DNA of 64,000 nt from an uncultured Ignavibacteria bacterium (GTDB lineage: Bacteria; Bacteroidota; Ignavibacteria; Tepidaquicellales; OLB5), in assembly GCA_947084945.1 (NCBI GenBank), contig CAMTUP010000015.1:24576-88575 (forward strand), written 5' to 3'. The position numbers were made by a program, and so were the translations under genes. The notes below the pieces were generated by a model, which saw nothing but the letters and a program-made list of their open reading frames with translations, was not told where the DNA came from and did not search any database. Shown here one piece after another: positions 6,402-23,717 of the stretch; the first letter of the stretch is position 1, and each line of letters starts with the position of its first letter.

Positions 6402-8372
6402 TTATTTAACCAAAATCATTTTCTTTGTATCAGTAAAATTACCTGATACAAGTTTGTAAAAATATACTCCGCTTGAAAGCATTGATGCATCAAATAGAAC
6501 TGAATTTGAACCCGCATCTTTAATTTCATTAACAAGTGTTTTAACTTCTTTGCCGGTTACATCGTATATTTTTAATGTAACAATCCCTCGTTGTGGTAAC
6601 TGGTAATTTATAACAGTTGCCGGATTAAACGGATTTGGATAATTCTGGCTAAGCGAAAATTCATACGGATTTTCTAACCTGTTATTATCAGTTACAACAT
6701 CAGTTACATTAGTAACCGGTATATCTATGTATGAATTTCTGCTTAAATAAACATAATTATAGCCATTGTTCAGCACAGGAAGAACAAATGGATTAGTCCC
6801 TAAAAACCACTGGTCATCAATATGTGTATCAAGATTTGTGATAATGATCTTAATTTTATTTCCTGCTTTAAATATATGTGAATGCGCCTGACCTTCAAAG
6901 TTTTTGGTTCTCCTGCTGTTAGCTGTATAATTTCTATCGGTATAATTTATCCTGTTAATGAGTTTTTCTTTTCCGTTTGTCTGAACTTCTATAATCTGGA
7001 AATTATACTGTGTAAATGTACTTGCTGATGATAAGTAATCCAGATTAACCTTTGGTATCCCAAGCCATTTTTTATCGCTTGTTAATGCAGTACTTGTAAA
7101 TGATACAGTATTTTTTTTAAATTTTGAAGTAAATGTTGTACCTGTGAACTCCTCATTTACGGCTTCCTGCATTGTAAGTCCGCCAGTAACCTGATTTCTG
7201 ATGGAAGTTCGTGTATTATTATTAGTACCTGCGGTAGTTGTTAAGCGGTTATTAGTATTAAAATACAGCCTGTATGGCGATGTAATATTCTGCAGAGCAA
7301 CTTTAGAGCTATCATGTTTAAAGGTCCAGTATAAACCATTTACCGGATACATTGTTGAAGCATAGTCATAATTAGCTGCTGGCAATTTAGTTCCGGAATA
7401 AGGGAAAAGCCAGTAATAGAACCAATCATTGAAAAACTGCATATGCCATGTGTCTTCTGTGGGTGAATTATCTCCACCATGCCCCTGTACAGCCCCAAGA
7501 TAAAGCCTGAATGTTGAATTAGTATTAAGTGTTGATGCCTTCATTATGCCCGAAGCATTAAAAAACTTATCCTGCCATGAGCCTTCCATTATCAACGGTA
7601 CACGATTATTGGGAATGCTTGTCATAAAATCTCTTCCCAATGGCAGCCAGTATGCAAGACTATCCCAGTAATTCTTACTGCTTGAATATATCCAGTCACT
7701 CATTCTTTCAACCTGCGGAGTATATCTTGCAGTATCGGGAGTGTATTCAACTGTCCATAACAAAGTCATTTTTATACAGCCATTTTCTATCCAGCTTGTT
7801 GCAAAATCTGGAGGAGCAAGCGCTGAAATTATTGTCTTTACATTCATACCCATTGTACAAGCCATATATGGAACAAGTCCGCCTTGCGAACCACCCATTA
7901 TAAGTATGTTTCCGGGATTGATTCCGTTCGGAGTATCCTGTTTAATAAAATTTATGAACTCTATCATATCCTGAGCTTCTATGTTGGATATAAGGTTTGA
8001 TAGTCCGGTTGAATTACCCTGCCCGCGCATACTGAATGTTGTAGTATAATATCCATATTCAGCCTGTGCTTTGGCAAATGCAGCAAGTGTTTCTTTATTA
8101 TCGCCATATCCATGCACGAAAACTACTGTAGGCCAGCCACCTGTTGGTGGTGTACCTTGTGGTATGAATTTTAAAGCATCCAGTATTATGCCATCTCGGA
8201 GGGTAACTGTAAAATCGACCCTTGTTACAGGAACTGCCGGGGCATTGGAATACTTTGGAAGGAGTTTCATATATTCATAGTTATCCCTTGCTCGTTTTTG
8301 CTGGGTATAACTTATGTTATTGAGTATTGTAAAAGAAATTAATGCCAAAAATAGTAATTTAGCTGCTCTCAT
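6402..8372 (-). CDS. Secreted CocE/NonD (S15 X-Pro dipeptidyl-peptidase-like) alpha/beta hydrolase with T9SS C-terminal domain
   Basis: 656 aa with a signal peptide. It has VVFVHGYGDNKE and the nucleophile elbow GGSQGG. The C-terminus is NYPNPFNPATVINYQL...SGVYFYKL...KKMILVK. Confidence 0.8.
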   Translation of the reverse strand: MRAAKLLFLALISFTILNNISYTQQKRARDNYEYMKLLPKYSNAPAVPVTRVDFTVTLRDGIILDALKFIPQGTPPTGGWPTVVFVHGYGDNKETLAAFAKAQAEYGYYTTTFSMRGQGNSTGLSNLISNIEAQDMIEFINFIKQDTPNGINPGNILIMGGSQGGLVPYMACTMGMNVKTIISALAPPDFATSWIENGCIKMTLLWTVEYTPDTARYTPQVERMSDWIYSSSKNYWDSLAYWLPLGRDFMTSIPNNRVPLIMEGSWQDKFFNASGIMKASTLNTNSTFRLYLGAVQGHGGDNSPTEDTWHMQFFNDWFYYWLFPYSGTKLPAANYDYASTMYPVNGLYWTFKHDSSKVALQNITSPYRLYFNTNNRLTTTAGTNNNTRTSIRNQVTGGLTMQEAVNEEFTGTTFTSKFKKNTVSFTSTALTSDKKWLGIPKVNLDYLSSASTFTQYNFQIIEVQTNGKEKLINRINYTDRNYTANSRRTKNFEGQAHSHIFKAGNKIKIIITNLDTHIDDQWFLGTNPFVLPVLNNGYNYVYLSRNSYIDIPVTNVTDVVTDNNRLENPYEFSLSQNYPNPFNPATVINYQLPQRGIVTLKIYDVTGKEVKTLVNEIKDAGSNSVLFDASMLSSGVYFYKLVSGNFTDTKKMILVK

Positions 8373-8485
8373 AGTAATTTTTCCCTACTTTATATATTGT
8401 GTAAAATTAATAAAAATAGTGTTTTGTTCCAATACAAAAATCAAAATCTTATATTTGATAAATCCCTTTAAAATAGGATTTTAAG

Positions 8486-8519
8486 AAAAAAATAAAAACC
8501 CCGCTTTTTGAGCAGGGTT
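8486..8519 (-). terminator. Rho-independent terminator after the 8802-10835 gene
   Basis: Minus strand reads aaccctgc-tcaaaaa-gcggggtt (8-bp stem including one G-U pair), followed by tttttattttttt. Confidence 0.6.
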
Positions 8520-8579
8520 TATTTGAAGTAACTTGATATGGATCAATTATCTTTAGTTACTTTTGTAAAGCGAAATTTA

Positions 8580-8681
8580 TTATGCTTTTCTCATTTGTTT
8601 GTTACTATAAAACAGGTAACCTAGTATTACAAATGGTATTAACAGAAACACAAAGATTACCGGTAATATTAATAGTGACAT
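8580..8681 (-). CDS. Possible 33-aa single-pass membrane peptide
   Basis: ATG at 8681 gives MSLLILPVIFVFLLIPFVILGYLFYSNKQMRKA, then a stop. Too short for the ORF track; supported only by hydrophobicity and the intergenic position. Confidence 0.2.
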   Translation of the reverse strand: MSLLILPVIFVFLLIPFVILGYLFYSNKQMRKA

Positions 8682-8801
8682 TTTTGACTCTCTTCTAATA
8701 AATTATTTTTCATTTTATCTTTTTTAAAGCAGGGATATCCCTAAAATTGTTCCCTAACTATCCCTGCTTATTTTTATTTTACTTAATTTATACTTTAAGT
8801 T

Positions 8802-10835
8802 TTATTTTACTAATGTCATTTTCTTTACTTCAGAGAAGTTTCCAGCGGTTAGTCTGTAGAAATATATACCGCTTGAAAGGTTCTGAGCATTGAACATTAC
8901 ATTGTATGAACCGGGGTTTTGCACGTCATTTACTAAAGTCTGAACTTCCCTGCCTAATAGGTCATATATCTTCAATTCAACCTTCTGGGCATCAGCAATT
9001 GAATACTGTATCATTGTGCTGGGGTTAAACGGATTCGGGAAATTCTGTGTCAAGCTATATGAATACGGTGAATTATTTTCGGGTGAATTTTCTTCAGCAA
9101 ACAAAACATCAATCCTGTTATATACATTGGTAACAATAGGAAGCTCAACATATGAATTGCTGCTAAGATATACTGTATGGTCGCCATTTTTCATTGTAGG
9201 TAATACAAATGGGTTTGTACCAAAGAACTCAGCATCTGTATGCGCTTTATCAAGATTTGTTATTATGACCTGGATCTTGCTTCCTGCCTGGAAGATATGT
9301 GAATGTGCCTGACCTCTGAATGTAACCTGCCTTCTTGAGCCTTTGGTATAATTTCTATCTGTAAAATTAGCGCGGTTTACAAATCTTCTTTCTCCGCTTG
9401 CGAGTACTTCATATATCTGGTAATTAAACTGTGCGAATGTTTGAGCTGCTGATTTATAATCAAGCCTTACAACGGGTGTGCCTGTCCACTCAAGATTAGT
9501 TGTTAATGCAGATGAAAGAAACTTCACTGAATCTTTTTTGAATTTTGCATTAAAATTTGCTCCATTAAATTCATCATATACTGCCTGCTGCAATGTATAT
9601 CCTGAAGTTATTCTGTTCCTCAAAGTAACATTGTTATTGCCTGATTGAACTGTAGTTTTTAAGACACCATTCCTATTCAGGTAAAGTCTCATTGGAGTAG
9701 ATATATTTCTAAGGAGTGTTGTTGAGCTATCATGTGTAAATGAGAAATACTGATTATTTACAACCGGAAAATGTGTTGATGCATATTGATATTTTGCCTG
9801 GGTAAATATTGTTGTTTCCATTCCCCATAATGTCTGATAAAAGAAATTATTGAACCAATCCATATGCCAAATATCTTCTGTTAAAGATATATCGCTGCCA
9901 TGTCCGCGAACTGCGCCAAGGTATGATGTTAATGGAGCGTTTGTAATTTTATCAATATGCAGCATCCAGCCATCTGCATTAAAGAATTTATCCTGCCATG
10001 CTGCTTCTACAAGAACTGGAGTTGTTATATTTGGAAGTCCTGTTATAAAATCTCTATCGCGTGGAAGCCAGTAAGCCAGACTATCCCAATATTGTTTATT
10101 ATCTGCATATATCCAGTCGCTCATTCTGCTTACCTGTGAATTATACCTTGCTGTATCAGGTGTATATTCAATTGTCCATAATAATGTCATTTTTGTACAA
10201 CCGTTCTCTATCCAGCTTGAAGCAAAGTCCGGTGGAGCAACTGAATTAATAATTGCTGCAACCTGCATACCTCTGATTGCTGCTATTAATGGAAGCGCGC
10301 CGCCCTGTGAACCGCCCATAATAAGTATCTTAGATGGGTTTGAACCATTTACTGAATCAGCTTTTAACCATAAAACTATTTCTTTTAAGTCATCTGCTTC
10401 TAATGTACTTATTAGATTTGATTGTCCGGTTGAAAATCCCTGACCGCGGACACTGAATGTCATAGTGTAATAACCATATTCAGCCTGCGCACGGCAGAAA
10501 TCTGCAAGTGTTTCTTTGTTATCGCCATATCCGTGTACCATCATAACTGTCATCCAGCCACCTGCGGGGGGAGTAACTTCGGGTATAAATTTTAAGCAAT
10601 CAATAATAACACCATCACGCATTGTAATAGTGAAATCAGTGCGGTTTACAACTAAATTTGCATCACCTGTGCTGCTTGGGAGTAAATATGAGGGTGTCCA
10701 TGAATTAAGTTTACCGGGTTTACTCATTACCTTACTTTGTGTATAGATAACTTCGGTGTAAGACATAAAAAAAAGAGCCAATGATAAGCATATCATTAAA
10801 AGTCTCTTTGTGTTTCGGGTTTTAATAGCATTCAT
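8802..10835 (-). CDS. Secreted CocE/NonD (S15-like) alpha/beta hydrolase with T9SS C-terminal domain, paralog of 6402-8372
   Basis: 677 aa. Long blocks are near-identical to the 6402-8372 product (APPDFASSWIENGCTKMTLLWTIEYTPDTARY, HGYGDNKETLA, GGSQGG). The C-terminus is NFPNPFNPSTMIQYSI...SGIYFYRL...KKMTLVK. Confidence 0.8.
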   Translation of the reverse strand: MNAIKTRNTKRLLMICLSLALFFMSYTEVIYTQSKVMSKPGKLNSWTPSYLLPSSTGDANLVVNRTDFTITMRDGVIIDCLKFIPEVTPPAGGWMTVMMVHGYGDNKETLADFCRAQAEYGYYTMTFSVRGQGFSTGQSNLISTLEADDLKEIVLWLKADSVNGSNPSKILIMGGSQGGALPLIAAIRGMQVAAIINSVAPPDFASSWIENGCTKMTLLWTIEYTPDTARYNSQVSRMSDWIYADNKQYWDSLAYWLPRDRDFITGLPNITTPVLVEAAWQDKFFNADGWMLHIDKITNAPLTSYLGAVRGHGSDISLTEDIWHMDWFNNFFYQTLWGMETTIFTQAKYQYASTHFPVVNNQYFSFTHDSSTTLLRNISTPMRLYLNRNGVLKTTVQSGNNNVTLRNRITSGYTLQQAVYDEFNGANFNAKFKKDSVKFLSSALTTNLEWTGTPVVRLDYKSAAQTFAQFNYQIYEVLASGERRFVNRANFTDRNYTKGSRRQVTFRGQAHSHIFQAGSKIQVIITNLDKAHTDAEFFGTNPFVLPTMKNGDHTVYLSSNSYVELPIVTNVYNRIDVLFAEENSPENNSPYSYSLTQNFPNPFNPSTMIQYSIADAQKVELKIYDLLGREVQTLVNDVQNPGSYNVMFNAQNLSSGIYFYRLTAGNFSEVKKMTLVK

Positions 10836-10878
10836 CTTTATAGATGTCCTTTCAGAATAGATTAGTTATTGATTAAAA

Positions 10879-11044
10879 ATAATCTTTTCTGCTATCGCAT
10901 TCCCTACGAATTAGTATGTTACAAATATAGCCTCTTGTCCACTCCTAAAACAATCGTAAACTTAAGTAAATCTGTAATTACACTCTAAACCTAATTAATC
11001 ATACTTTCACTGTATAACGAAAAAACCTATATTATCTAACGTAT
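10879..11044 (-). repeat. Copy 1 of a ~165-bp promoter/leader repeat (partner at 20188-20351)
   Basis: Aligns by eye in direct orientation with 20188-20351. A ~75-nt core is almost identical (cgttatacagtgaaagtatgaWtaattaggtttagagtgtaattacaKatttacttaagtttacgattgttttagg on the minus strand). It lies immediately upstream of the ATG at 10835. Confidence 0.85.
10923..10930 (-). promoter_or_regulatory. Candidate Bacteroidetes-type -7 box (TAnnTTTG)
   Basis: Minus strand reads TATATTTG, with a TTG about 21 nt upstream (gaTTGttttagg). It is conserved in both repeat copies and lies about 85 nt upstream of the ATG. Confidence 0.4.
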
Positions 11045-11184
11045 GAGGGTGAGGATTGAGATGAAGGAGTCTTTTGGGAAGTTAAAAGTGGCGATATTAG
11101 CGTTTTTTTGAGTATGCGGGAAAAGTACTAAAAACAGTCAACTTTTAAGCCTGCTAGAGTAGAAAAGCGACCATGTCTAAGACA

Positions 11185-11219
11185 GGTGAAGACTGCATAA
11201 AGCGCAGAAAGCCTTCACC
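11185..11219. other. Nested stem-loop in a noncoding junction
   Basis: ggtgaag-a-ctgc-ataaagc-gcag-aaagc-cttcacc: outer 7-bp and inner 4-bp complementary arms. Confidence 0.45.
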
Positions 11220-11232
11220 ACTGAGGTTCACG

Positions 11233-11254
11233 GAGGACACAGAGGACACAGAGG
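11233..11254. repeat. Short tandem repeat, 9-nt unit gaggacaca, about 2.4 copies
   Basis: Read directly: gaggacaca gaggacaca gagg. Confidence 0.7.
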
Positions 11255-11266
11255 TATGCAATATTT

Positions 11267-11292
11267 CTTTGTTGGTGACAACACCAACAAAG
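11267..11292. other. Perfect 11-bp hairpin just upstream of the first rhs fragment
   Basis: ctttgttggtg-acaa-caccaacaaag. No flanking T run on either strand, so it is not a classical terminator. Confidence 0.7.
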
Positions 11293-11329
11293 GGCTAAAA
11301 TTTTCTATATTTATGATAACTCAAACAGA

Positions 11330-12835
11330 TTGTTAAAAACACAAAATGATGATGGAAATAATACATCAACATTTAACATTATCAACGGCTATGATAAAGA
11401 CGGCAATTTTGTAGGCATGAAGCGTTATGGCTCGTCTAATAATCTTGCAGATAATTTTACTTATACATATTTTAGCGGTACTAATAAACTGCAAAAGGTA
11501 ACAGGACAGATGAACGATGATTACAGCTATGATGCAAATGGCAATGTTACATATGATAATGTTAATAAAAATACCGAAATTAAATATGATCACCGCAATT
11601 TGATGATAGAAAACAAAAATATTTCATCACTTAATACATACCGGACATTATACCGATACGATGAAGCAGGTAACAGGATAAGTAAAAAGCAATATCTCTA
11701 TATAAACTCTCCCCCGCCCGGAGGTATTGTCCGAAGGACTCCTCTCGGAGAAGGAATTGAAAGCGGTACTGGATATGGTGACAGCATTATAGTAGATGTA
11801 GGCGACGGAAGCGGTTACTGGTCTTTGGTTGGCAATACGTATTATGTCCGCGATGTTTCAGGTAAAGAAATTGCAATATATTCAGGAAGTTCTTTAACTC
11901 AATGGAATATTTGGGGACTTGATAACGTGGGTAAGATTAATTCAGATACTACTCGCAATTATTACCTGAAAGACCATTTGGGAAGCGTAAGAGTAGTTTT
12001 GAACAGTACTAATACAGTAATCTCTGCTCAAGACTATGATTGTTGGGGCTATTTACTTGAAGGGCGAACTTATGAATCCGTGTCATCAGTTAATCAGCGA
12101 TACAAATTTACCGGTAAAGAAAGAGATAGAGATTTAGAAAGTAATTATGATTATTTTGGTGCGAGGTATTATGATAGCAGGATAGGAAGGTGGGGCGGAG
12201 TTGAGCCAAAATATGATAAGTATGTAGGAGTAACACCATATAATTATTCCTTAAACAATCCTATAATAATGATTGATCCAAACGGTAAAGATCCATATAG
12301 GAAGTATCTTGTATCCTTGCAAACAATCTCAAATAATATCAGTTCATTTGGTGATGCAAAATCTAATTCATTGGGTGCTGTACAATCTTTTTATGATATA
12401 GCATCATTTTATAATGATACTAAATATCGTTATACTTTTACTGAAAAATCAGGATTTATTGATTTGAAGCATTTCTTTGCTTCTGCTGGTTTAGTTGCTT
12501 TAAGTCTAGCAAAAAATAAAGCTGAAAATTATGGATTTTTATATGAAGTATTACAAGACTTAGGAATTGCTGATGAAAATTCGGCATACGATCCGGAAGA
12601 TTTGCCTTCAAATAAATTAGGTGCTGAATTTGGTGAGTATTTTGCAAATAGTGAATTAACTTTAGAAGAAGCGTTTGTGGAATTTATGAAAGAGCAAGGT
12701 TCTAAAGATTTGGATGAATCATATTTCAGCATTTGGTATATACCATATGACGAAAATAGCAGACCTTTAGAAAGAAGCAGGTCAAATAGCCCATTTTACG
12801 GTGAAAGAGTCCGAAAAAATTATCTTGAAAATTAA
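11330..12835 (+). CDS. 5'-truncated RHS/YD-repeat protein: about 320 aa of repeat/core plus a 181-aa C-terminal toxin-like domain (CT1, unknown family)
   Basis: YD repeats (YSYDANGNVTYD, YRYDEAGNRISK) are followed by RHS-core-end motifs YYLKDHLGSVRVV, YDCWGY, YKFTGKERD, NYDYFGARYYDSRIGRW and PYNYSLNNPIIMIDPNGK (DPNG at 12275-12286). The frame opens only at 11321, and the track start is a TTG. A full Rhs shell would need well over 1000 additional N-terminal residues. Confidence 0.85.
   Translation: MLKTQNDDGNNTSTFNIINGYDKDGNFVGMKRYGSSNNLADNFTYTYFSGTNKLQKVTGQMNDDYSYDANGNVTYDNVNKNTEIKYDHRNLMIENKNISSLNTYRTLYRYDEAGNRISKKQYLYINSPPPGGIVRRTPLGEGIESGTGYGDSIIVDVGDGSGYWSLVGNTYYVRDVSGKEIAIYSGSSLTQWNIWGLDNVGKINSDTTRNYYLKDHLGSVRVVLNSTNTVISAQDYDCWGYLLEGRTYESVSSVNQRYKFTGKERDRDLESNYDYFGARYYDSRIGRWGGVEPKYDKYVGVTPYNYSLNNPIIMIDPNGKDPYRKYLVSLQTISNNISSFGDAKSNSLGAVQSFYDIASFYNDTKYRYTFTEKSGFIDLKHFFASAGLVALSLAKNKAENYGFLYEVLQDLGIADENSAYDPEDLPSNKLGAEFGEYFANSELTLEEAFVEFMKEQGSKDLDESYFSIWYIPYDENSRPLERSRSNSPFYGERVRKNYLEN
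11729..11749. repeat. Palindromic element gtccgaaggactcctctcgga, in frame (encodes VRRTPLG)
   Basis: Arms tccgaagga / tcctctcgga are complementary apart from a 1-nt bulge. The same element occurs at 15253-15272 and 19493-19512. Confidence 0.7.
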
Positions 12836-12837
12836 AA

Positions 12838-13404
12838 ATGATGATAAAAAAAATTATTATCATAGTACTCTTTTTTGGGGTGGTATATCTATTAAGAATA
12901 TTTCTACTAAATATTCCATTTATTGGGTGGGCTTACGAAGCCTTTGAAATTAAGATTTCCGTTTTCCTATATAATTTTGTTACGAATCCGATTTTAGTAT
13001 CCACATCAGTAATTATTATTATATTAACAAACGTAATTTTATTTAAGAAAAATATTGGTTGGAAATATATTTACATTCAATTTATTCTTTATGTAATTTT
13101 GTTGTTTTGGATTTATGAAGGTTTTAGAATTGAAAATTTAATTTCTTTAGGAAAGAAAATCACTATAGAAGTTGAAAAAGTATTTGCCACTGATAATAAA
13201 TTGCCTCAAAATCTTGACGATATTACCAAGTATAATTTTGATCAAAATGAAGCATCGCAAATAAAAGAAAATTTCAAATATGAACTGGATTTTGCTCAGC
13301 CTATTCCTAAGTATGGATATAAATTGGATTTAGAACCTACTTTTCTAAAATACCATAGGTTTGTATGTAAGCCTTGGACGAAAAAGTTTATAATGTTTGA
13401 TTAA
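12838..13404 (+). CDS. Putative immunity protein 1 (polytopic membrane N-half, soluble C-half)
   Basis: ATG lies 2 nt after the CT1 stop; 188 aa. Hydrophobic segments are IIIIVLFFGVVYLL, ILVSTSVIIIILTNVILF and YIYIQFILYVILLFWIY. The immunity call rests on position only. Confidence 0.55.
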   Translation: MMIKKIIIIVLFFGVVYLLRIFLLNIPFIGWAYEAFEIKISVFLYNFVTNPILVSTSVIIIILTNVILFKKNIGWKYIYIQFILYVILLFWIYEGFRIENLISLGKKITIEVEKVFATDNKLPQNLDDITKYNFDQNEASQIKENFKYELDFAQPIPKYGYKLDLEPTFLKYHRFVCKPWTKKFIMFD

Positions 13405-14470
13405 TAATTTTGTCTGTATACAAATTGATGTAGGCGACGGAAGCGGTTACTGGTCTTTGGTTAGCAATACGTATTATGTCCGTGATATTTCAGGTAAAGA
13501 AATTGCAATATATTCAGGAAGTTCTTTAACTCAATGGAATATTTGGGGACTTGATAACGTGGGTAAGATTAATTCAGATACTACTCGCAATTATTACCTA
13601 AAAGACCATTTGGGAAGTATAAGAGTAGTTTTGAACAGTACTAATACGGTTATCAGTGCCAATGATTATGATTGCTGGGGTTATCCACTGGAAAACCGTA
13701 CTTACCAGCCTGAGAACAGTAAATATAAGTTTACCGGTAAGGAAAGAGATAAAGATTTGGAGAATAATTACGATTACTTCGGGGTGAGATATTATGACAG
13801 CAGGATTGGTAGATGGGGAGGTGTTGAGCCGTTGTTGGATAATAATATTAGTTTTACCCCATATAATTACTGTAAAAATAATCCTGTAATATTTATTGAT
13901 CCAAATGGCGCATGGGATGAATATGTAAATGAAGCGGGCAAGTATCTTGGCTCAGATAATGATCCGAATTCAAATGAAGTGAGAGTTACGAGTGACGAAG
14001 AGTGGAATCAAACAAATTCAAAACAATCATCAAGTGAAGAAAAGAGAAATGAACTTCAGTCTAGAAGCACCCTTTTGAATGAGTACAAGTTTGGAATATC
14101 AATTTCTGAGCAAACTTGGAATGTCTTGGAATCACAAAATGTTGAACGGTTAGATCCCTATGTTATAAACCAAAGTGATTATACTATTTATTATAAGCCC
14201 GAAGAAGGTGACTTACCATGGCCAATTGCTCCACATACCGATTTGTATACAAGGGTAGATGGTTTAAATACCCCATGGATATCTGACGGAAATGTTTACA
14301 AAGTTCCAGATTATTATAGGACTGTAGTTAACTCAAAAGGTGTACCAGATATAAGAGGCATTCCATTAGAAATAATAGGTGAAGTTGTTTCAAAAATAAG
14401 ACCACTGCTTGGCGAAATTAAATCACCTGGTTCTGATTGGAACAACCTAAGGGATGTATACAAAAAATGA
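13397..14470 (+). CDS. Orphan RHS core-end fragment fused to C-terminal toxin-like domain CT2 (186 aa, unknown family)
   Basis: Nucleotide homology to the first fragment starts at about 13427 (DVGDGSGYWSLV...). The stretches 11856-11967 and 13488-13599 are identical over 112 nt. The DPNG boundary is at 13898-13909, then unrelated sequence. The track start is a TTG inside the preceding gene, probably not a real start. Confidence 0.8.
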   Translation: MINNFVCIQIDVGDGSGYWSLVSNTYYVRDISGKEIAIYSGSSLTQWNIWGLDNVGKINSDTTRNYYLKDHLGSIRVVLNSTNTVISANDYDCWGYPLENRTYQPENSKYKFTGKERDKDLENNYDYFGVRYYDSRIGRWGGVEPLLDNNISFTPYNYCKNNPVIFIDPNGAWDEYVNEAGKYLGSDNDPNSNEVRVTSDEEWNQTNSKQSSSEEKRNELQSRSTLLNEYKFGISISEQTWNVLESQNVERLDPYVINQSDYTIYYKPEEGDLPWPIAPHTDLYTRVDGLNTPWISDGNVYKVPDYYRTVVNSKGVPDIRGIPLEIIGEVVSKIRPLLGEIKSPGSDWNNLRDVYKK

Positions 14471-14820
14471 AAAAACTAAAAAATATCTTAGGTTTTAGTG
14501 TTTATATACCATTAATATTTCCAATTGCTTTATATTCTTATTATTTAAGAATTTATATCATATTAGGTCATATTCCTGAAATTAAGAATAAAGATGAGTT
14601 TAATATTACCATGAACTTGCATAGTTTATTAGTATTCAATTCATTTACATTTACTTTTTTAATAGTTTTTATTAATATTTTGTTGATAATTATATGTATC
14701 ATAAAATTAAAGAATAGACCCGATAATTCAATATTAATAGGCTTTACAATTAGTACATTAATTTGGGCTATAGTAGTAATATTTGATCCATTTGGCATTT
14801 TTAGTTGGATTGTAGGTTAA
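14467..14820 (+). CDS. Putative immunity protein 2 (small polytopic membrane protein)
   Basis: ATGA start/stop overlap with CT2. MKKLKNILGFSVYIPLIFPIALYSYYL..., with three strongly hydrophobic segments; 117 aa. Confidence 0.55.
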   Translation: MKKLKNILGFSVYIPLIFPIALYSYYLRIYIILGHIPEIKNKDEFNITMNLHSLLVFNSFTFTFLIVFINILLIIICIIKLKNRPDNSILIGFTISTLIWAIVVIFDPFGIFSWIVG

Positions 14821-14862
14821 TTTTTCCCCTGTTCCTACCAACAACGGCGTAAGACCCGCTGG

Positions 14863-15983
14863 AAATACACAGGTGGTTCCCCTAACCCGGTGTATGATGA
14901 GGATAGCCCAAGTTGGATTTTGCAGAGCGATGAATTTTATGTAAGAGATATTTCAGGTAAAGAAATTGCAATATATAACGGTTCAAGCTTAACACAATGG
15001 AATATTTGGGGACTTGATAATATAGGAAAAATAAACGCTGATACTACACGAAATTATTATTTGAAAGATCATTTGGGAAGCGTAAGAGTAGTTTTGAACA
15101 GTACTAATACAGTAATCTCTGCTCAAGACTATGATTGTTGGGGCTATATACTTGAAGGGCGAACTTATGAATCTGTGTCATCAGTTAATCAGCGATACAA
15201 GTTTACGGGCAAAGAAAGAGATAAAGATTTAGAAAGTAATTATGATTATTTTGTCCGAAGGACTCCTTTGGAGGCGCAAGGTATTATGATAGCAGGATAG
15301 CCAATTGGACAAGCACTGACCCGCTCTTTGAAAAGCATTTTGATTATTCACCGTATAATTATGTACTCAGGTGTCCTACTGTTTTACTGGATCCTGATGG
15401 AAAACAAATTAGATTTTCAAATGATGCATCACTCAGAAATAATGAGTTGCAATCATTAAAAAATACGTTACCTGGAAAATATTCCGAAAATGTTAATTAC
15501 ATTCAAGATGAAAAAGGAAATTACATCTTAGATGCTGTACTTCTAGAAAAGGCATCAACTGACTCGAATCCTGAAGAGTACAATCGATTAATGGACATTG
15601 CAAAGTTTAATGAAATTACTGACATAAAGGCATGGAATAATGAACCAATATCATACGATAAAGGTACATTTACTCTCGGTACATTTAAAGATGAAAACGG
15701 AAGTAAGAAATTAAGAGCTGGTTATACCTTAGTCTCAGGTAAAGTAGACAATCCAAGTGAAAATAAAGATTTATCTACAAGCGGTAATAACGAAGTGTAT
15801 TACTTATGGCTTATGAACGAAACTTCAGTTGCTAGCACATTAGCCCATGAATTGTATGTTCATGTTTGGAATTATATTAAAGGAACAGGGTATACACATC
15901 AAGATGAAAATATAAATAATCAGTCAGAATATTTTGAAAGTAAAGCTAAACAAAACTATGAAGAACGTAAAAATGAAAAATAA
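14863..15983 (+). pseudogene. Orphan RHS core-end + CT3 toxin-like domain, frameshifted by a 20-nt insertion
   Basis: Track ORFs 14890-15300 and 15447-15983 are two halves of one module. Reading ...NYDYF, then the insertion at 15253-15272, the text resumes in the other frame as GARYYDSRIANWTSTDPLFEKHFDYSPYNYVLRCPTVLLDPDGKQ (DPDG at 15390-15401). Deleting the 20 nt restores a single 357-codon frame from 14890. Confidence 0.8.
15253..15272. repeat. 20-nt palindromic insertion gtccgaaggactcctttgga disrupting cassette 3
   Basis: Cassette 4 reads gattattttggcgcaag at the same site, whereas cassette 3 reads gattatttt[gtccgaaggactcctttgga]ggcgcaag. The arms tccgaagga / tcctttgga pair with one G-T. 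Confidence 0.75.
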
Positions 15984-16620
15984 GACAATTTTCGTAAGTT
16001 TCTTTTTTATTTTACTTTCATCACATACTATAATGATTATAAGTGATGACTTGGTTGAACTAAAGGTACTGCCAAATAGAATAAGCAATAACTTAGTTTG
16101 TGAATCCATAATGTATTCAATTACAAATAATTATTCGGATACAATAGTTACTTTTAGTGATGTATTTATAGAGGGCTTGACTGATACTATATCTATATTC
16201 CCAATGTCAAGTATGTTTGCACCAAACCTCGCAATATTAAAGTCACCTAATAACTCACGTTTATTTGTTGATGGTTATTTTGAAATACTTTTTTATCAAT
16301 TTCCGAATTTGTTGGTCATTCCACCAGGTGCAACAAAAGTAATTAATCTGAATATTGCCAATTACAAAACAATTTTAAGTCAAGACATATGGAATATAAC
16401 TGGTATAATTTCGGTTGCACATAAATATGATATTGACACTATTGTCTCAATTAATTATCCCAAAAGATATAGTGAATATGTTAGAGCATTAGATTATCAA
16501 GATACAGTTTATATTTATTCAAAAACTACAGGTTCTATTAATTCAATATATAAAAACGAAAGTTTAGAGCAAATTAATTTAATAAAAGAGGCATTTAAGT
16601 TTAGGTATTATTCAAAGTAA
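15973..16620 (+). CDS. Putative immunity protein 3 (signal peptide or N-terminal anchor plus soluble domain)
   Basis: The ATG at 15973 overlaps the CT3 stop region (aaaATGaaaaaTAA). MKNKTIFVSFFFILLSSHTIMII..., 215 aa. The track ORF starts earlier, at 15934. Confidence 0.5.
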   Translation: MKNKTIFVSFFFILLSSHTIMIISDDLVELKVLPNRISNNLVCESIMYSITNNYSDTIVTFSDVFIEGLTDTISIFPMSSMFAPNLAILKSPNNSRLFVDGYFEILFYQFPNLLVIPPGATKVINLNIANYKTILSQDIWNITGIISVAHKYDIDTIVSINYPKRYSEYVRALDYQDTVYIYSKTTGSINSIYKNESLEQINLIKEAFKFRYYSK

Positions 16621-16705
16621 TCCAAATACACAGAAAGCACACCTGACCGGTGTTTGATGTTTCGGGTGATTCACCGCCATGGACACTGCAGAGTGATGAG
16701 TATTA

Positions 16706-16735
16706 ACTGTCTTCGCCACGGCTCAACCAGTCAAG
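16706..16735. other. 30-nt insertion creating an in-frame TAA in the core-homology part of cassette 4
   Basis: Cassette 3 reads cagagcgatgaattttatgtaagagat. Cassette 4 reads cagagtgatgagtatta[actgtcttcgccacggctcaaccagtcaag]tgttagagat. The stop codon is at 16704-16706. Confidence 0.6.
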
Positions 16736-16802
16736 TGTTAGAGATGTTAGCGGTAAGGAAATAGCGATATACTCAGGAAGCTCATTAACGCAATGGAATA
16801 TC

Positions 16803-17633
16803 TTGGGCTTGGATAATGTTGGCAAGATTAATGCCGATACCACAAGAAATTATTATTTAAAAGATCATTTGGGAAGCGTAAGAGTAGTTTTGAACAGTAC
16901 TAATACGGTTATTAGTGCCAATGATTACGACTGTTGGGGTTATTTACTTGAAGGGCGAACTTATGAATCTGTGTCATCAGTTAATCAGCGATACAAGTTT
17001 ACGGGCAAAGAACGGGATAGAGATTTAGAAAGTAATTATGATTATTTTGGCGCAAGATATTATGATTCACGTATAGCCAACTGGACAAGCATTGACCCGC
17101 TCTTTGAAAAGCATTTTGATTACTCGCCGTATAATTATGTGTTGAGAAACCCGTTAGTGTTGATTGACCCGGATGGGAAGCAAGTAGATATAAAAGAACT
17201 ATCAGACCCTATATATCATATTAACAAAGAAGTGGGATTTATTTATGATTATGCAATCTCTGTGAATAATAAATTAGCAGAGCAAAGCAAAAAATTAAAT
17301 AATACTGCAAAAGAATGGATTCCTAAGTTTGCTTTTAGAAAAGGAGTTGAAATTGCCATGGAATTTGTTGCTTTAAAACTTCAAATGGAAGCAAAATTTA
17401 TGATTAAAATAACTGGTGTTGTGTTACAGCTAGCATTAGATACTAGAGAACTGGGTCCAAAATCGGAACAAGATAAAATGGATGAAATAAATGAAGAGGT
17501 ATATGGTAAAAAGAAGAGAATTGACGAAAATAATGACAAAAAAGAAGAAAAGAAGGAAGAAAAAAAACAAGAAAGCAAAAACACTGAATATAATAAAATT
17601 AAGTTAATACCATTTAAAATTTTTGGGTTTTAA
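16803..17633 (+). CDS. Orphan RHS core-end fragment fused to CT4 (151 aa, hydrophobic helix plus K/E-rich tail)
   Basis: Core homology actually begins at 16624, 4 nt after the preceding stop, but is interrupted by the 16706-16735 insertion. The frame is open from 16707. The core end is ...NYDYFGARYYDSRIANWTSIDPLFEKHFDYSPYNYVLRNPLVLIDPDGKQ (DPDG at 17166-17177). Confidence 0.75.
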   Translation: MGLDNVGKINADTTRNYYLKDHLGSVRVVLNSTNTVISANDYDCWGYLLEGRTYESVSSVNQRYKFTGKERDRDLESNYDYFGARYYDSRIANWTSIDPLFEKHFDYSPYNYVLRNPLVLIDPDGKQVDIKELSDPIYHINKEVGFIYDYAISVNNKLAEQSKKLNNTAKEWIPKFAFRKGVEIAMEFVALKLQMEAKFMIKITGVVLQLALDTRELGPKSEQDKMDEINEEVYGKKKRIDENNDKKEEKKEEKKQESKNTEYNKIKLIPFKIFGF

Positions 17634-17637
17634 ATCT

Positions 17638-17871
17638 ATGGAATTCATTATATTTATTTTACTGTTTATATTATTTGAACTACTTGGCAAAAAGAGTAAG
17701 AATATTACGCTTTGTATCGGAGGTAATATTTTAAAAATTGTAAAAGGAAAAATATTTAATAAAGAATATTTAATTAATCATAAAAAAATAGCACAAACAA
17801 TTGGATATGCAGTTTTAATTTCTTTCCTTTTTAGCATATCGTTTTTTTTAAGTATTATTTTTGGTAATTAG
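17638..17871 (+). CDS. Putative immunity protein 4 (two-TM mini-protein)
   Basis: ATG lies 5 nt after the CT4 stop. MEFIIFILLFILFELLG ... IGYAVLISFLFSISFFLSIIFG; 77 aa. Confidence 0.5.
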   Translation: MEFIIFILLFILFELLGKKSKNITLCIGGNILKIVKGKIFNKEYLINHKKIAQTIGYAVLISFLFSISFFLSIIFGN

Positions 17872-17916
17872 TAACGCAATGCTGACACTACTCGCAATTA
17901 TTACCTAAAAGACCAT

Positions 17917-18810
17917 TTGGGAAGTATAAGAGTAGTTTTGAACAGTACTAATACGGTAATATCTGCTCAAGACTATGATTGTTGGGGTTATTTACTTGAA
18001 GGGCGAACTTATGAATCTGTGTCATCAGTTAATCAGCGATACAAATTTACCGGTAAGGAAAGAGATAAAGATTTGGAGAATAATTACGATTACTTCGGGG
18101 TGAGATATTATGACAGCAGGATTGGTAGATGGGGAGGTGTTGAGCCGTTGTTGGATAAGTATGTAAGTTGGAGCCCTTATAATTATGGTTTATGTAATCC
18201 AATAATTTTAAAAGATGTGAATGGATTAGATGTATTTGTTGCATTTTCAGGTTGGGGTATGCATAAATCAGGAGAAATTATTGACCCTTCAGAATATTCG
18301 CCAACTTCTGAAACTGGAACCAACGTTTTATTATATGATTTACAGAAAACTATTAATGATAACAACATTAATGATTTTGATATTCGAGGATATTATGCAA
18401 GTTCGAGTGGTAGTGAAATTGAAGAGGCATTTAATTTTATTAAACAAAATTTAGAAAATTCAGATGAAAAAGTATATCTGTATGGTTACAGCATGGGTGG
18501 AATAAATATTGTAGAGCTTGCAGATATGTTAGGTGAAGCAGGTATAAGCGTTGAGTTATTATTTACGATTGATGCAGATAAACCATTTACTGGTAGTGAG
18601 CAAAATATACCTAGTAATGTAATTGAAAATTGGAATTTTTATCAAACTAATAAAGAATTACCATTCTTTTCAAGTGGTAGTGTGAATAAAGCATTTGATT
18701 TGAAAAAAACTACAATATTAAATATTAAAAAATCTGATCCTCATATGCAGATGGATGAAGAAACGGGTTCAGCTGTTCTTAGAAAAATTTACGGTTCAAT
18801 TATAAAGTAA
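17917..18810 (+). CDS. Orphan RHS core-end fragment fused to CT5, an alpha/beta-hydrolase lipase/esterase-like toxin domain
   Basis: Homology starts at about 17878 (NADTTRNYYLKDHLGSIRVV) and the frame is open from 17875. The core ends at ...PYNYGLCNPIILKDVNGL (18214-18225). The CT has a GxSxG nucleophile elbow, YLYGYSMGG (Ser codon 18490-18492). Confidence 0.8.
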   Translation: MGSIRVVLNSTNTVISAQDYDCWGYLLEGRTYESVSSVNQRYKFTGKERDKDLENNYDYFGVRYYDSRIGRWGGVEPLLDKYVSWSPYNYGLCNPIILKDVNGLDVFVAFSGWGMHKSGEIIDPSEYSPTSETGTNVLLYDLQKTINDNNINDFDIRGYYASSSGSEIEEAFNFIKQNLENSDEKVYLYGYSMGGINIVELADMLGEAGISVELLFTIDADKPFTGSEQNIPSNVIENWNFYQTNKELPFFSSGSVNKAFDLKKTTILNIKKSDPHMQMDEETGSAVLRKIYGSIIK

Positions 18811-18817
18811 TTATAAA

Positions 18818-19108
18818 ATGAAAATTATAAAATTTATTTCTGCTATCGCAATTTTGTTTTCTATATTCATGTTTTCTTCCATGTATTTTAATTTATATCC
18901 CCCTCTTATTTTTAAAGCATTTTCAAATTATTTTTTTCAATTTTGGATTGTAATTGTTCTGGTCGCATTTAGTTTATCAATATTTTCAATATTTAAGATT
19001 AAATTAAAGAATAATAAAAAACATTATAATTTATTATTTATTAACACTGCTCTACTTGGGTTAGTAATAGTATATTTTGTCTTTGTTTTTTTTGTTCATA
19101 AGCCTTAA
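18818..19108 (+). CDS. Putative immunity protein 5 (three-TM membrane protein)
   Basis: 96 aa, starting 8 nt after the CT5 stop. Hydrophobic segments are IIKFISAIAILFSIFMFSSMYF, FWIVIVLVAFSLSIFSIF and LLFINTALLGLVIVYFVFVFFV. Confidence 0.55.
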   Translation: MKIIKFISAIAILFSIFMFSSMYFNLYPPLIFKAFSNYFFQFWIVIVLVAFSLSIFSIFKIKLKNNKKHYNLLFINTALLGLVIVYFVFVFFVHKP

Positions 19109-19204
19109 ACATTTGTTTGTGAGAATATGTAATTTTGAAGACTTTAATATAGTTATGTAAGAGACACTTGACGCAAATATGAAAATATCTTAACACTCCA
19201 GTGA

Positions 19205-19627
19205 ACAAGAATTATTCAGGATGATTTTCTTTACAAATATGTGAGCGGCACAAACAGGCTAAGAAATATTGGACATGGACAAAATTATACCTATGACCCC
19301 AACGGCAATGTAACTTTAGATGATTTGAATAAAAACACCGAAATAAAATATGACCACCGCAATTTGATGATTGAAAACAAAAATGTTCTTTCTCTTAGTA
19401 CATACATGACAAGATACCGCTATGACGAAGCCGGAAATAGGATAAGTAAAAAGCAATATCTCTATATAAACTCTCCCCCGCCCGGTGGAATTGTCCGAAG
19501 GACTCCTCTCGGTGAAGGCGGTAATGGATACGGAGATAGTATTATTGTGGATGTAGGCGATGGATCAGGCTACTGGACTTTGGTTGGCAATATGTATTAT
19601 GACAAGGATTTTAGTTGTAAGGAATAA
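19205..19627 (+). pseudogene. Terminal RHS repeat fragment duplicating the 5' part of the 11330-12835 gene
   Basis: DDFLYKYVSGTNRLRN...NKNTEIKYDHRNLMIENKN...YRYDEAGNRISKKQYLYINSPPPGGIVRRTPLGEG..GYGDSIIVDVGDGSGYWTLVGNMYY is colinear with residues ~41-172 of the first fragment. It then decays (DKDFSCKE, stop), with no core end or toxin. Confidence 0.75.
19493..19512. repeat. Third copy of the palindromic element (gtccgaaggactcctctcgg), in frame
   Basis: Read directly; same context as 11729-11749 (PPPGGIVRRTPLGEG). Confidence 0.7.
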
Positions 19628-19640
19628 ATATACTTCATAA

Positions 19641-19672
19641 CAAAAAACCCCTGCTCTAATGTAGAACAGAGG
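19641..19672 (-). terminator. Rho-independent terminator of the 19702-20151 gene
   Basis: Minus strand reads cctctgttcta-cat-tagagcagggg (11-bp stem including two G-U pairs), followed by ttttttg. Confidence 0.75.
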
Positions 19673-19701
19673 TTTAAAATTTTCAATATATAAAAATTAG
19701 C

Positions 19702-20151
19702 TTACTTTATGATATTCAATTTTCTTACTTCTTTGTACTTTCCAACAACTAAGCGGTAATAATAAGTGTCCTTGGTCAAATTAGCCTGCTTAAGCTCTGC
19801 CGAAAATTCACCCTTTGGTTTATTATCATCAATTAACACTTTTAACTCTCTGCCCTTTGTATCAAAGATAGAAAACCTAACATACTCACCCTGCGGAATA
19901 GAAAAACTGAATAATGTATTATTTTCAACTAAAAGCATATCGCTCTGCTCAAGCTCGCTGGTACTTAGTGAGTTAGCTTCTGTTGATGTTAAATTATCGG
20001 GGTTAACTGAGCAACCAGTCAAGTTAGTATTACCTGCAAATGCAGTATTGCCAGCTATGCATAAAAAAAGAAGCATTGATAACATTGCTGTCAATTGCTT
20101 CGTTGATAAAAAACTTTGGGTTTTACGGTTTTGGGTCTGATTAGCTTTCAT
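19702..20151 (-). CDS. Minimal T9SS cargo: signal peptide, short Ser/Thr/Asn-rich linker and a T9SS C-terminal sorting domain
   Basis: 149 aa. Hydrophobic h-region LTAMLSMLLFLCIAGNTAFA. The C-terminus FSIPQGEYVRFSIFDTKGRELKVLIDD...DTYYYRLVVGKYKEVRKLNIIK resembles the other CTDs in the window. Confidence 0.7.
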   Translation of the reverse strand: MKANQTQNRKTQSFLSTKQLTAMLSMLLFLCIAGNTAFAGNTNLTGCSVNPDNLTSTEANSLSTSELEQSDMLLVENNTLFSFSIPQGEYVRFSIFDTKGRELKVLIDDNKPKGEFSAELKQANLTKDTYYYRLVVGKYKEVRKLNIIK

Positions 20152-20187
20152 TTTAAAATTACCTTTTAAGAAGTAGATTTATTATTT

Positions 20188-20351
20188 AATAATCTCTTCT
20201 GCTATGGTCTTTCCCTACCGATTAGTGATACAAATATAGCCTGCTGCCCGACCCTAAAACAATCGTAAACTTAAGTAAATATGTAATTACACTCTAAACC
20301 TAATTATTCATACTTTCACTGTATAACGTTAGCCCGATATTCTCTAACGTA
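20188..20351 (-). repeat. Copy 2 of the ~165-bp promoter/leader repeat (partner at 10879-11044)
   Basis: Direct-orientation alignment with copy 1. It lies immediately upstream of the ATG at 20151. Confidence 0.85.
20231..20238 (-). promoter_or_regulatory. Candidate -7 box TATATTTG (copy 2)
   Basis: Same position within the repeat as 10923-10930. Confidence 0.4.
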
Positions 20352-22844: not shown

Positions 22845-23480
22845 TTACTCATTACTCATTACTCTTTGCTCAACACTCATTAAGTTTGTGTTCATAAAAT
22901 GTAAGCTTCCTTTTACAGTCTGCTGAATAACTTCATCAGGCATCATGGCACACCTTCCGCGGATAATTAATGCAGCCATTCCGTGTACAAATCCCCAAAA
23001 TGCAAATGTAGCTGCATCAACATCAGAGTTTATGATATTACCACGAGCAATACAATCTTTAACAGTTTCTCTTAAATAATCATAGGTACGTTGTCCTGCA
23101 TCCCATTCCTTTTTTTCAAATATTTTATCTCCAACACCTTTTGCAATGAACATGAGGTCATAATAATCTTTGTTTTCCATTGCAAACTTCATATATAACT
23201 CACCCATTTTAGCAAGTTTTTCAACTGGATTTCCGATTCCGTCAAGAGTTTTTTGTAATGCATAAAGTTTTTTAAAACCTTCAGTATGGATAGCATGTAT
23301 AATATCACCTTTATCTTTAAAGTATGAATATAATGAACCTGGGGAATACTCTATTTTTTCTGCTATTGCACGCATAGAAACATTCTCTATCCCATTTTGT
23401 GTAAATAGCTGCATTGCTGTTTTTATTATCAACTGCCTCATTTCAAGCTTTTCACGTTCTTTTCTATCTTCTGATCCCAT
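22845..23480 (-). CDS. TetR/AcrR-family transcriptional regulator
   Basis: N-terminal HTH: LFTQNGIENVSMRAIAEKIEYSPGSLYSYFKDKGDI; 211 aa. Confidence 0.9.
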   Translation of the reverse strand: MGSEDRKEREKLEMRQLIIKTAMQLFTQNGIENVSMRAIAEKIEYSPGSLYSYFKDKGDIIHAIHTEGFKKLYALQKTLDGIGNPVEKLAKMGELYMKFAMENKDYYDLMFIAKGVGDKIFEKKEWDAGQRTYDYLRETVKDCIARGNIINSDVDAATFAFWGFVHGMAALIIRGRCAMMPDEVIQQTVKGSLHFMNTNLMSVEQRVMSNE

Positions 23481-23492
23481 ATAAGTAAACCT

Positions 23493-23509
23493 TGTTTATA
23501 TTTTAAACA
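23493..23509. promoter_or_regulatory. Candidate TetR operator palindrome TGTTTA-N5-TAAACA
   Basis: Read directly 13 nt upstream of the TetR ATG, followed by another TTGTTTA half-site. The background is AT-rich, so chance occurrence is plausible. Confidence 0.25.
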
Positions 23510-23717
23510 TTGTTTAATAATTGAATGCAATTTAATATATGAAATTTTAAATGTCAATATAATTAGATAATATTATTAAATAAATTACTGTTTTACAATA
23601 ATATGATTAGTTTAATACAGATAATGTTTTGACTTTAATTTTTATAACAATTTTGCAATCATTACAAATAAATTAATCTATCTTAGTAAAAAAGAGCTTA
23701 TACTCTATAATTAATAG

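Follow-up and report, generated by a model that had tools for sequence, protein, structure and literature searches.

What do two direct repeats do on either side of an rhs array? In a 64,000-nt stretch of the genome of an uncultured Ignavibacteria bacterium (contig CAMTUP010000015.1; the whole stretch is hereafter called the window), two same-orientation repeats of about 165 bp bracket an array of rhs/YD-repeat cassettes, and each precedes a minus-strand gene for a protein with a type IX secretion system (T9SS) C-terminal sorting domain (CTD). A first-pass annotation offered two readings, a regulatory module shared by T9SS cargo genes and a footprint of the insertion of the array. Our results indicated that the repeats are probably copies of an old module, a promoter followed by a folded leader, that belongs to a family of T9SS-secreted paralogs in one lineage of Ignavibacteria.

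The repeat at 10879-11044 (copy A) and the repeat at 20188-20351 (copy B) aligned with 85.6% identity over 167 nt (MAFFT and blastn, E = 3e-44). Their core, CGTTATACAG...GTTTTAGG, was identical at 75 of 77 nt (10943-11019 versus 20252-20328), in agreement with the almost invariant segment of about 75 nt in the first-pass annotation. Core sub-patterns of 27 and 45 nt occurred exactly twice in the window (0 expected from 100 shuffles), and low-stringency blastn found no third copy there. As read from the sequence, the core contains stop codons in all six frames. Because weaker similarity ran on from the repeat through the leader to the first 10 codons or so (MNAIKTRN and MKANQTQN), the real unit measures about 235 nt:

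10806..11044, minus strand: copy A, whole module (upstream blocks, predicted promoter, leader and first 10 codons), from the alignment with copy B
20122..20351, minus strand: copy B, whole module before the 149-aa gene 19702-20151, from the alignment with copy A

Each copy lies directly 5' of its gene, as expected of a shared promoter and leader. The gene after copy A (8802-10835, minus strand) encodes a 677-aa protein with Peptidase_S15 (alpha-beta hydrolase) and Por_Secre_tail domains; the 149-aa product of the gene after copy B matched the Pfam family Por_Secre_tail with E = 0.006, below its cut-off. The common part of the two proteins is the sorting domain only, at 31% identity, and the non-coding DNA of the module is thus far better conserved than the genes. 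The element was absent from the adjoining S15+CTD paralog (6402-8372; 656 aa, 55% identical to the 677-aa protein), from the gene for an FG-GAP CTD protein in the same window (48149-51298), and from the PorZ-like (3194-5527), PorV-like (51303-52445) and PorU-like (C25 peptidase, 52488-56651) genes. The proposed link to T9SS cargo therefore stood for S15+CTD and CTD-only genes and did not extend to the other CTD and Por genes of the window.

Syntenic loci were collected by means of orthologs of the 677-aa protein; loci or contigs of relatives are given L-numbers. An exact 20-mer of the core (TAATTAGGTTTAGAGTGTAA) had no match in species genomes, and its one match in metagenomes, on L001, was dismissed as chance, the flanks being unrelated. 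Relatives at 82-86% protein identity carried several copies of the element each and no rhs array. In L006/L007, four copies precede a 683-aa S15+CTD gene, genes of 138 and 136 aa and the ortholog of the 677-aa gene; L009 also has four, before genes of 144, 130 and 676 aa and, in one case, without a gene. The degenerate pattern CGATTGTTTTAGG-N14-TATNTTTG, derived from an alignment of the relatives' copies, was found in 27 stretches when 185,579 species genomes were scanned, all of them in Ignavibacteria metagenome-assembled genomes (about 20). With a relaxed regular expression and a covariance model built on the leader (R1, which retrieved 58 distinct copies), the search for further copies yielded a total of 62 distinct copies in about 20 Ignavibacteria genomes and none elsewhere.

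The distance from the element to the ATG was 46-92 nt, and the downstream gene encoded either a 676-685-aa S15+CTD protein or a 127-149-aa CTD-only protein, with few exceptions in which the open reading frame (ORF) was shortened or no gene followed (L009:5505, L031, L017 and L033:174). All 58 distinct covariance-model matches precede S15+CTD or CTD-only genes, and no real match occurred elsewhere in 317 kb. The model matched copy A at 10806-10921 (90.1 bits) and copy B at 20122-20230 (82.5 bits); a third, weak match in the window (5792-5900, 18.7 bits, E = 0.77), without promoter core or downstream gene, was rejected as noise. The order UvrC, TetR, TonB receptor, element array and, further on, PorZ was kept where contigs reached far enough, and the element was restricted to this one conserved locus type in the sampled genomes. 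The small proteins are mutually homologous and consist of a signal peptide, a short linker and the CTD with no passenger domain; all 21 that were tested matched TIGR04183 (T9SS type A sorting domain). The exact 149-aa protein of the window is not on record. It had only 66 homologs in a collection of 5.8 billion protein sequences, the named ones nearly all from Ignavibacteria, and no solved structure was matched by sequence for the CTD-only family.

The 3' half of the module is predicted to act as an RNA. Both window copies contain the leader block GTAGGGAA..ATAGCAGA.AGATTAT, the second conserved block that the first-pass annotation had placed in the transcribed leader, and this block proved to be one strand of a predicted, covarying mRNA helix. 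When each leader was folded alone, from the TATATTTG box (described below) to codon 10, its 5' segment (CGGU, GGG and N-AUAGC) paired with codons 3-9 (GCUAU-N, CCC and ACCG). The resulting helix closes a domain with a variable, A+U-rich hairpin (P4) and, some 10 nt ahead of the AUG, a GAAAGGA that stays unpaired; the hydrolase genes have their AUG within a further small hairpin (P5). The predicted parts, with P1 to P3 as the segments of the leader-codon helix, are as follows:

10836..10921, minus strand: copy A leader, predicted 5' untranslated region (UTR), from a single-sequence fold (z = -1.97) and pair counts
10902-10904 and 10891-10896, minus strand: copy A GGG (5' strand of P2) and GATAGC (5' strand of P3)
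10854-10890 and 10847-10853, minus strand: copy A hairpin P4 and GAAAGGA, which resembles a ribosome-binding site (RBS)
10842-10846 and 10833-10837, minus strand: copy A hairpin P5, CATCT with AGATG, start codon included
10817..10829, minus strand: copy A, 3' strands of P3 and P2 within codons 3-7 (GCTATT...CCC)
20152..20230, minus strand: copy B leader, from a single-sequence fold (z = -2.22)
20217-20220, 20213-20215, 20201-20204 and 20169-20200, minus strand: copy B CGGT (P1), GGG (P2), TAGC (P3) and P4
20126..20145, minus strand: copy B codons 3-9, pairing with the leader (GCTA 20142-20145, CCC 20133-20135 and ACCG 20126-20129)

Ten of 12 diverged leaders folded alone to the same architecture, with z values of -2 to -4.4. 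In a sequence-only MAFFT alignment, 74.5% of the P1-P3 cells were paired, compared with 31-38% when the partners were slid, and on MAFFT alignments the covariation score was 0.172 versus 0.128 for shuffles (0/500). The leader base before AUAGC covaried with the wobble base of codon 4 (AU 10, GU 6, GC 5, UA 4 and UG 1), and the adjacent pair was UA in 11 cases and CG in 6. Copies without AUAGC/GCUAU paired in another register, as GCAGC/GCUGU in L016 and as GGGAAUACU/AGUAUCCCC in L009_130. When the 58 copies were aligned by fitting to R1, double changes were seen in 22 of 31 pairs (15.1±1.8 in shuffles, 0/500), and the number of further pair types was 61 (46.3 in shuffles, 0/500). RNAalifold on the 45 best rows returned P2 and P3 with default scoring and P2-P5 with RIBOSUM. 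Leader identity between orthologs was 0.87-0.91, versus 0.50-0.63 at four-fold degenerate sites. The predicted leader-to-codon helix is thus supported by pairing and by covariation that includes a synonymous codon position, and a conserved structure with compensatory changes was found together with a consistent 5' UTR position before a defined class of genes.

With Rfam (Rfam 15, 4227 families), no match in the window reached the gathering score; both copies gave only chance-level matches at E up to 10, and in five related loci no match fell on the elements. An attenuator or intrinsic terminator in the leader was rejected, as neither leader contained a terminator-like site, and P4 is A+U-rich and followed by GAAAGGA.

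The upstream half was analyzed by stacking 46-62 copies on the TATATTTG box, with a numbering that assumes +1 to lie 7 nt past the box. The stack contained almost no indels, and blocks of invariant bases alternated with variable bases at fixed spacing: TACAGTGA at about -97, GGTTT at about -75, GTAATT-N4-A(A/T)TTAC at about -64 to -49 (which in some copies makes a perfect palindrome of 16 bp) and TTTACGATTGTTTTAGGG at -45 to -27, which contains the -33 TTG. A 14-nt spacer, often GGG..CCC, follows TTTACGATTGTTTTAGGG and leads to TAT[ACT]TTTGTA; the arrangement TTG-N21-TAT[ACT]TTTGTA was invariant in the 36 aligned copies, TTG-N21-TAT[ACT]TTTG is present in both window copies, and a TAnnTTTG box with the TTG 21 nt ahead of it did not vary in any copy found. 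As had been claimed, conservation of the DNA is strongest upstream of the -33 element. The following features were located:

10943..11019, minus strand: copy A upstream core (75 of 77 nt shared with copy B), with blocks that recur, unchanged or almost so, at fixed spacing in 46-62 copies of other genomes
11007-11014, 10987-10991 and 10966-10981, minus strand: copy A TACAGTGA, GGTTT and GTAATT-ACAG-ATTTAC
10951-10953, minus strand: -33 TTG within copy A TTTACGATTGTTTTAGG
10922..10929, minus strand: copy A TATATTTG box, predicted -7/-10 element, 21 nt 3' of the TTG
20252..20328, minus strand: copy B upstream core, from the alignment with copy A
20316-20323, 20296-20300, 20275-20290 and 20260-20262, minus strand: copy B TACAGTGA, GGTTT, GTAATT-ACAT-ATTTAC and TTG
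20231..20238, minus strand: copy B TATATTTG box
20326..20350, minus strand: copy B distal inverted repeat ACGTTAG-N11-CTAACGT, read from the sequence

Copy A keeps only the left arm of the distal inverted repeat (11036-11042). This repeat, ACG(T/G)TAG-N11-13-CTA(A/C)CGT, occurs mainly in the 677-type copies and in copy B, and its arms change symmetrically (ACGGTAG/CTACCGT). Some copies (L020, L023) have extra TACAGTGAAT boxes 24 nt upstream. Sequences farther upstream of the element were unrelated between copies.

RpoD promoters have been mapped by differential RNA sequencing (dRNA-seq) in the sister phylum, where the Chlorobaculum tepidum variant is TTG-N17-23-TA[ATC][ATC][AT]T (10.1101/172254). 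The aligned copies share with Bacteroidota/Chlorobiota RpoD promoters (-33 TTG and -7 TAnnTTTG; 10.1101/172254) the TTG, a 21-nt spacer and TAT[ACT]TTTG, and the supported RNA structure starts just 3' of the box, where +1 would be expected. Unlike those promoters, the module adds about 70-110 bp of block-wise conserved DNA upstream of -33. The earlier equation of TAnnTTTG with the Bacteroidetes -7 element therefore fits at this site, through the invariant TTG-N21-box arrangement (10.1101/172254), whereas general use of the motif in this organism was not confirmed. Terminator-like hairpins at 20423-20398 and 19675-19645 enclose the transcription unit of copy B; the one belonging to the upstream TonB-receptor gene lies about 50 nt ahead of copy B, and the small gene therefore needs a promoter of its own. 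A function of the upstream half at the DNA level, as a promoter with regulator sites, is favored by this terminator, by the fixed spacing, by the absence of predicted RNA structure and by the unrelated sequence farther upstream. The upstream blocks are most likely sites for one or more transcription factors, through which the family as a whole would be switched.

Some candidate regulators and site types were considered and set aside. No sigma-54 -24/-12 motif was read at the right spacing, and the helical periodicity of core conservation was weak (lag 10, r = 0.14; lag 22, r = 0.36). The neighboring TetR (22845-23480) was rejected, since its palindrome TTAAACAaTGTTTAA (23503-23517) is not shared with the element, nor are the motifs of the element found upstream of tetR. 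This palindrome, which is perfect, lies together with a TTGACA box in a stretch upstream of tetR that was strongly conserved in the window, L009, L022 and L028; the stretch is probably the TetR operator and the promoter of the TetR/TonB-receptor operon, unrelated to the element. The consensus of LytTR sites, which we take to be ACAGTTAAG, is resembled in one half-site by the element box ACAGTGAAT, and the upstream sites lie between about -100 and -50, which offers a lead only. LytTR/AgrA activator sites consist of two 9-bp direct repeats, the proximal one centered near -60 (PMC4227749). In contrast, no second matching 9-mer lies 21-22 nt from the invariant box of the element, and duplicated boxes are 24 nt apart. 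A LytTR-type site (9-bp repeats with a gap of 12-13 bp) was rejected on this account, the block about 20-21 nt past ACAGTGAAT (T.GGTTT..) matching at 3 of 9 positions.

Several observations weigh against the interpretation of the module as a promoter followed by a functional folded leader. Both the promoter and the leader's 5' end are predicted; a sigma-70 consensus scan did not call the conserved site; the density of TAnnTTTG in the window was 1.28/kb upstream of genes versus 1.09/kb overall (47 crude gene calls); and no regulator of the family was found. The copies are paralogs and orthologs, whose shared ancestry inflates shuffle-based covariation statistics, and relatedness-robust measures were not significant on MAFFT alignments (7 versus 5.2 pairs, 45/500; 11 versus 10.5). 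The significant values for double changes and pair types were obtained on an alignment that had been fitted to the structure in question, RNAalifold returned no structure from the plain MAFFT alignment of the leader or from all 64 model-aligned rows, and P1 and P5 are subfamily-specific, with L006_136, L036_135 and L009_130 pairing partly or in a different register. The non-significant robust measures and the empty RNAalifold result on the full set would suit a leader-codon complementarity that arose as a by-product of descent and coding constraint, from a duplicated promoter and signal-peptide start with no function at the RNA level: all copies are related by duplication, and the 5' strand (GUAGGGAA, AUAGC) is nearly invariant, so that many pairs are uninformative. 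We consider such a by-product unlikely, however, because the positions that do vary covary, among them a third codon position that is synonymous and shows five compatible types of pair, because copies lacking AUAGC/GCUAU keep their pairing in another register, because 10 of 12 leaders, at z values of -2 or below, share one fold, and because slid-partner controls pair at half the rate. Less likely still is the opposite extreme, in which all of the roughly 235 nt act as RNA, in a riboswitch or a long structured 5' UTR whose promoter lies farther upstream, and the apparent promoter boxes are conserved RNA. The distal inverted repeat and the short GGG-N4-5-CCC palindromes before TACAGTGA change symmetrically, as stems would. 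Against this reading, a terminator-like hairpin is found just upstream of copy B; the sequences that precede the element are unrelated between copies; RNAalifold on the MAFFT alignment of the upstream part, with its fixed spacing and scarcity of indels, predicted no structure; whole window elements (about 210 nt) folded singly with z of about 0; and the supported helices begin only about 10 nt past the TATATTTG box.

The arrangement of the copies had also suggested that the duplication is a footprint of the entry of the rhs island of about 9 kb, either a duplicated target or a recombination scar: the repeats are direct, they bracket the array, and their 77-nt cores are nearly identical. Relatives without the rhs array nevertheless hold 2-7 copies at the same locus, each before its own gene, which contradicts a footprint and makes it highly improbable. 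Where a single copy had been looked for in syntenic relatives lacking the array, L006/L007 and L009 have four each, and in other genomes the number per locus reaches 5-7. The array does lie between the two window copies (11330-19627), as had been described, but the interval between them also contains the gene of copy B, and the two copies come from different subfamilies, with leaders only 57% identical. Pfam searches of six island ORFs returned weak RHS_repeat, DUF4056, Thioesterase and Tle1-like matches only and no integrase or transposase. L040, a close strain whose sample also gave L004, is 96.5% identical across the small gene and keeps the small-gene junction; it then diverges inside the array, at the last rhs fragment (window 19462-19627 versus L040:805-1957), which indicates that array content varies between strains of the same population. 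The copies are older than the rhs array and occur without it. The outcome named in the first-pass annotation as contrary to its proposal, two copies with no island and hence a simple paralogous promoter, is essentially what we saw, although this promoter and leader are unusually elaborate. Nor do the repeats resemble the ends or relics of a mobile element, such as a recombination site, the boundary of an integron-like cassette or a miniature inverted-repeat element. A mobile origin would suit its several copies, its place among small genes in a variable array that resembles cassettes, and the assembly breaks that it causes, but its distance and orientation before the ATG are fixed, with the first codons included, and the sampled genomes have it at a single type of locus. 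Neither target duplications nor terminal inverted repeats were seen, the core has stops in all six frames, and no recombinase was found by Pfam among the scanned window ORFs of at least 90 aa. We regard a mobile element as equally improbable.

The near identity of the two cores in this genome requires a separate explanation. Copies A and B were 0.97 identical in the core and 0.57 in the leader, whereas the core of copy A was 0.74-0.89 identical to the cores of its own orthologs. In L009, the copies before the 130-aa and 676-aa genes share cores that are 92% identical. Over all genomes, mean core identity was 0.74 within a genome and 0.73 between genomes, which indicates that gene conversion is occasional and limited to short tracts and is not the general rule. 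In the genome studied here, the near-invariant core appears to reflect local gene conversion. In three other samples, copy A has the T of copy B (G in the window) at the one variable site of the 3' core. Promoter modules of regulon type that belong to paralogous genes for secreted proteins and are kept alike by gene conversion are a general phenomenon. The element resembles them in that several copies per locus share upstream sites and in that the cores here and in L009 are more alike than orthologs; it differs in that homogenization is patchy, is limited to the upstream core and leaves out the leader. Four independent short-read contigs of the 677-aa gene and of the small gene in other assemblies (L002:1-30, L003:1-30, L004:1-30 and L040:1-30) share their opening 30-mer, ATATTTACTTAAGTTTACGATTGTTTTAGG. 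Its length equals k-1 in these assemblies, whose graph thus branches inside the repeat. The repeated core explains why short-read assemblies break exactly at these genes.

Taken together, the data are consistent with an expression module of about 235 nt that would have been inherited by both the S15-type hydrolases (about 680 aa) and the proteins of about 130-150 aa that have only a CTD after the signal peptide, the genes of this family sitting in a variable array between the TonB-dependent receptor gene and a block containing porZ. The upstream half would act as DNA, a TTG-N21-TATATTTG promoter preceded by the 70-110 bp or so of conserved blocks. The downstream half would act as RNA: the transcript would start a few bases past the box, and its 5' end would pair with codons 3-9 and close a domain containing the variable hairpin, the exposed RBS-like GAAAGGA and the AUG. 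This fold may set mRNA stability, gate translation initiation, or both, by protecting the 5' end and/or by limiting the access of ribosomes to the first codons until it is opened. In the present genome, a short conversion tract would have homogenized the upstream cores and left the leaders apart, and the rhs array would be cargo of the variable region between two members of the family.

Translation or mRNA decay is known to be controlled by leaders whose pairing involves the beginning of the coding sequence, a general class with translational operators, RNA thermometers and stabilizing 5' stem-loops such as that of E. coli ompA. The module resembles this general class of structured 5' leaders in that the predicted helix between the mRNA 5' end and codons 3-9 encloses the RBS and the AUG and in that covariation reaches synonymous codon positions. 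Unlike them, it has no Rfam match, leaves its own RBS-like motif unpaired and has an invariant 5' strand, GUAGGGAA, that suggests sequence-specific recognition; the invariance of this strand beside a variable partner is a hint, though a speculative one, that a factor recognizes it. A more far-reaching proposal, which we regard as doubtful, is that the leader is a new riboregulator that senses a protein, a small RNA or a metabolite and frees the start of the message only when the product can be secreted; together with the enhancer-like array of upstream sites, it would then form a portable "cargo cassette" module that the lineage places before new T9SS substrates and whose copies are kept in step by gene conversion.

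The surroundings of the module are as follows. Read along the minus strand, the locus consists of UvrC (divergent), a TetR regulator, a TonB-dependent receptor, a terminator-like hairpin, copy B with the 149-aa gene, a second hairpin of this kind, the array of rhs/YD cassettes (which runs on the other strand), copy A with the 677-aa gene, the 656-aa paralog, a pterin-4a dehydratase, a TPR protein and PorZ. In every genome, a variable array occupies the stretch from the TonB receptor to the 677-type gene; in this one it holds the rhs cassettes:

11330..19627, plus strand: array of rhs/YD-repeat C-terminal cassettes, between the copies and not part of the module, recognized by its repeats and YD motifs

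The array contains five repeats of about 300 nt and recurring YYDSRIGR core ends, with YD motifs at 11522, 11651, 19286 and 19415; its RHS_repeat matches were weak. The paralog at 6402-8372 (intergenic region 8373-8801) keeps GTAGGGAAAA 9 nt 5' of its ATG, which may be a remnant of the invariant block of the leader.

Further observations concern the arrays of relatives. The 7.6-kb contig L033 carries five leader copies, two of which (L033:1113-1224 and 2839-2950) are identical in the leader, in the 150 nt that precede it and in the 127-aa gene; this pair is a very recent tandem duplication of a unit of about 1.7 kb. At L009:5445-5580 and L031:49-349, the promoter core and the box occur without a leader or gene and are followed by the hairpin GCCGTCAGTGACGGC and a T-rich run, so that each is either a decayed copy or the promoter of a tiny terminated transcript. 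In L006, the variable gene array contains two Rfam matches to Acido-Lenti-1 above the gathering score, on the minus strand at L006:5201-5245 and at 5328-5372. Public gene calls place a 221-aa gene across the whole element (L006:9339-10004, and likewise in L007 and L008); the call is probably spurious, since other copies of the element have stops in all frames.

To our knowledge, a few Bacteroidia and Flavobacteriia are the only bacteria in which the regulation of T9SS cargo is known, and we know of nothing on it for Ignavibacteria. The element is a previously undescribed, though conceptually ordinary, lineage-specific cis-regulatory module together with a candidate new structured leader, whose function we infer. 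The finding corrects the tempting view that direct repeats around an rhs array are marks of insertion. It also provides a candidate structured leader, absent from Rfam, whose predicted pairing enters the coding sequence and would constrain synonymous sites, and it offers defined upstream DNA sites with which the regulator of this family of secreted proteins may be fished out.

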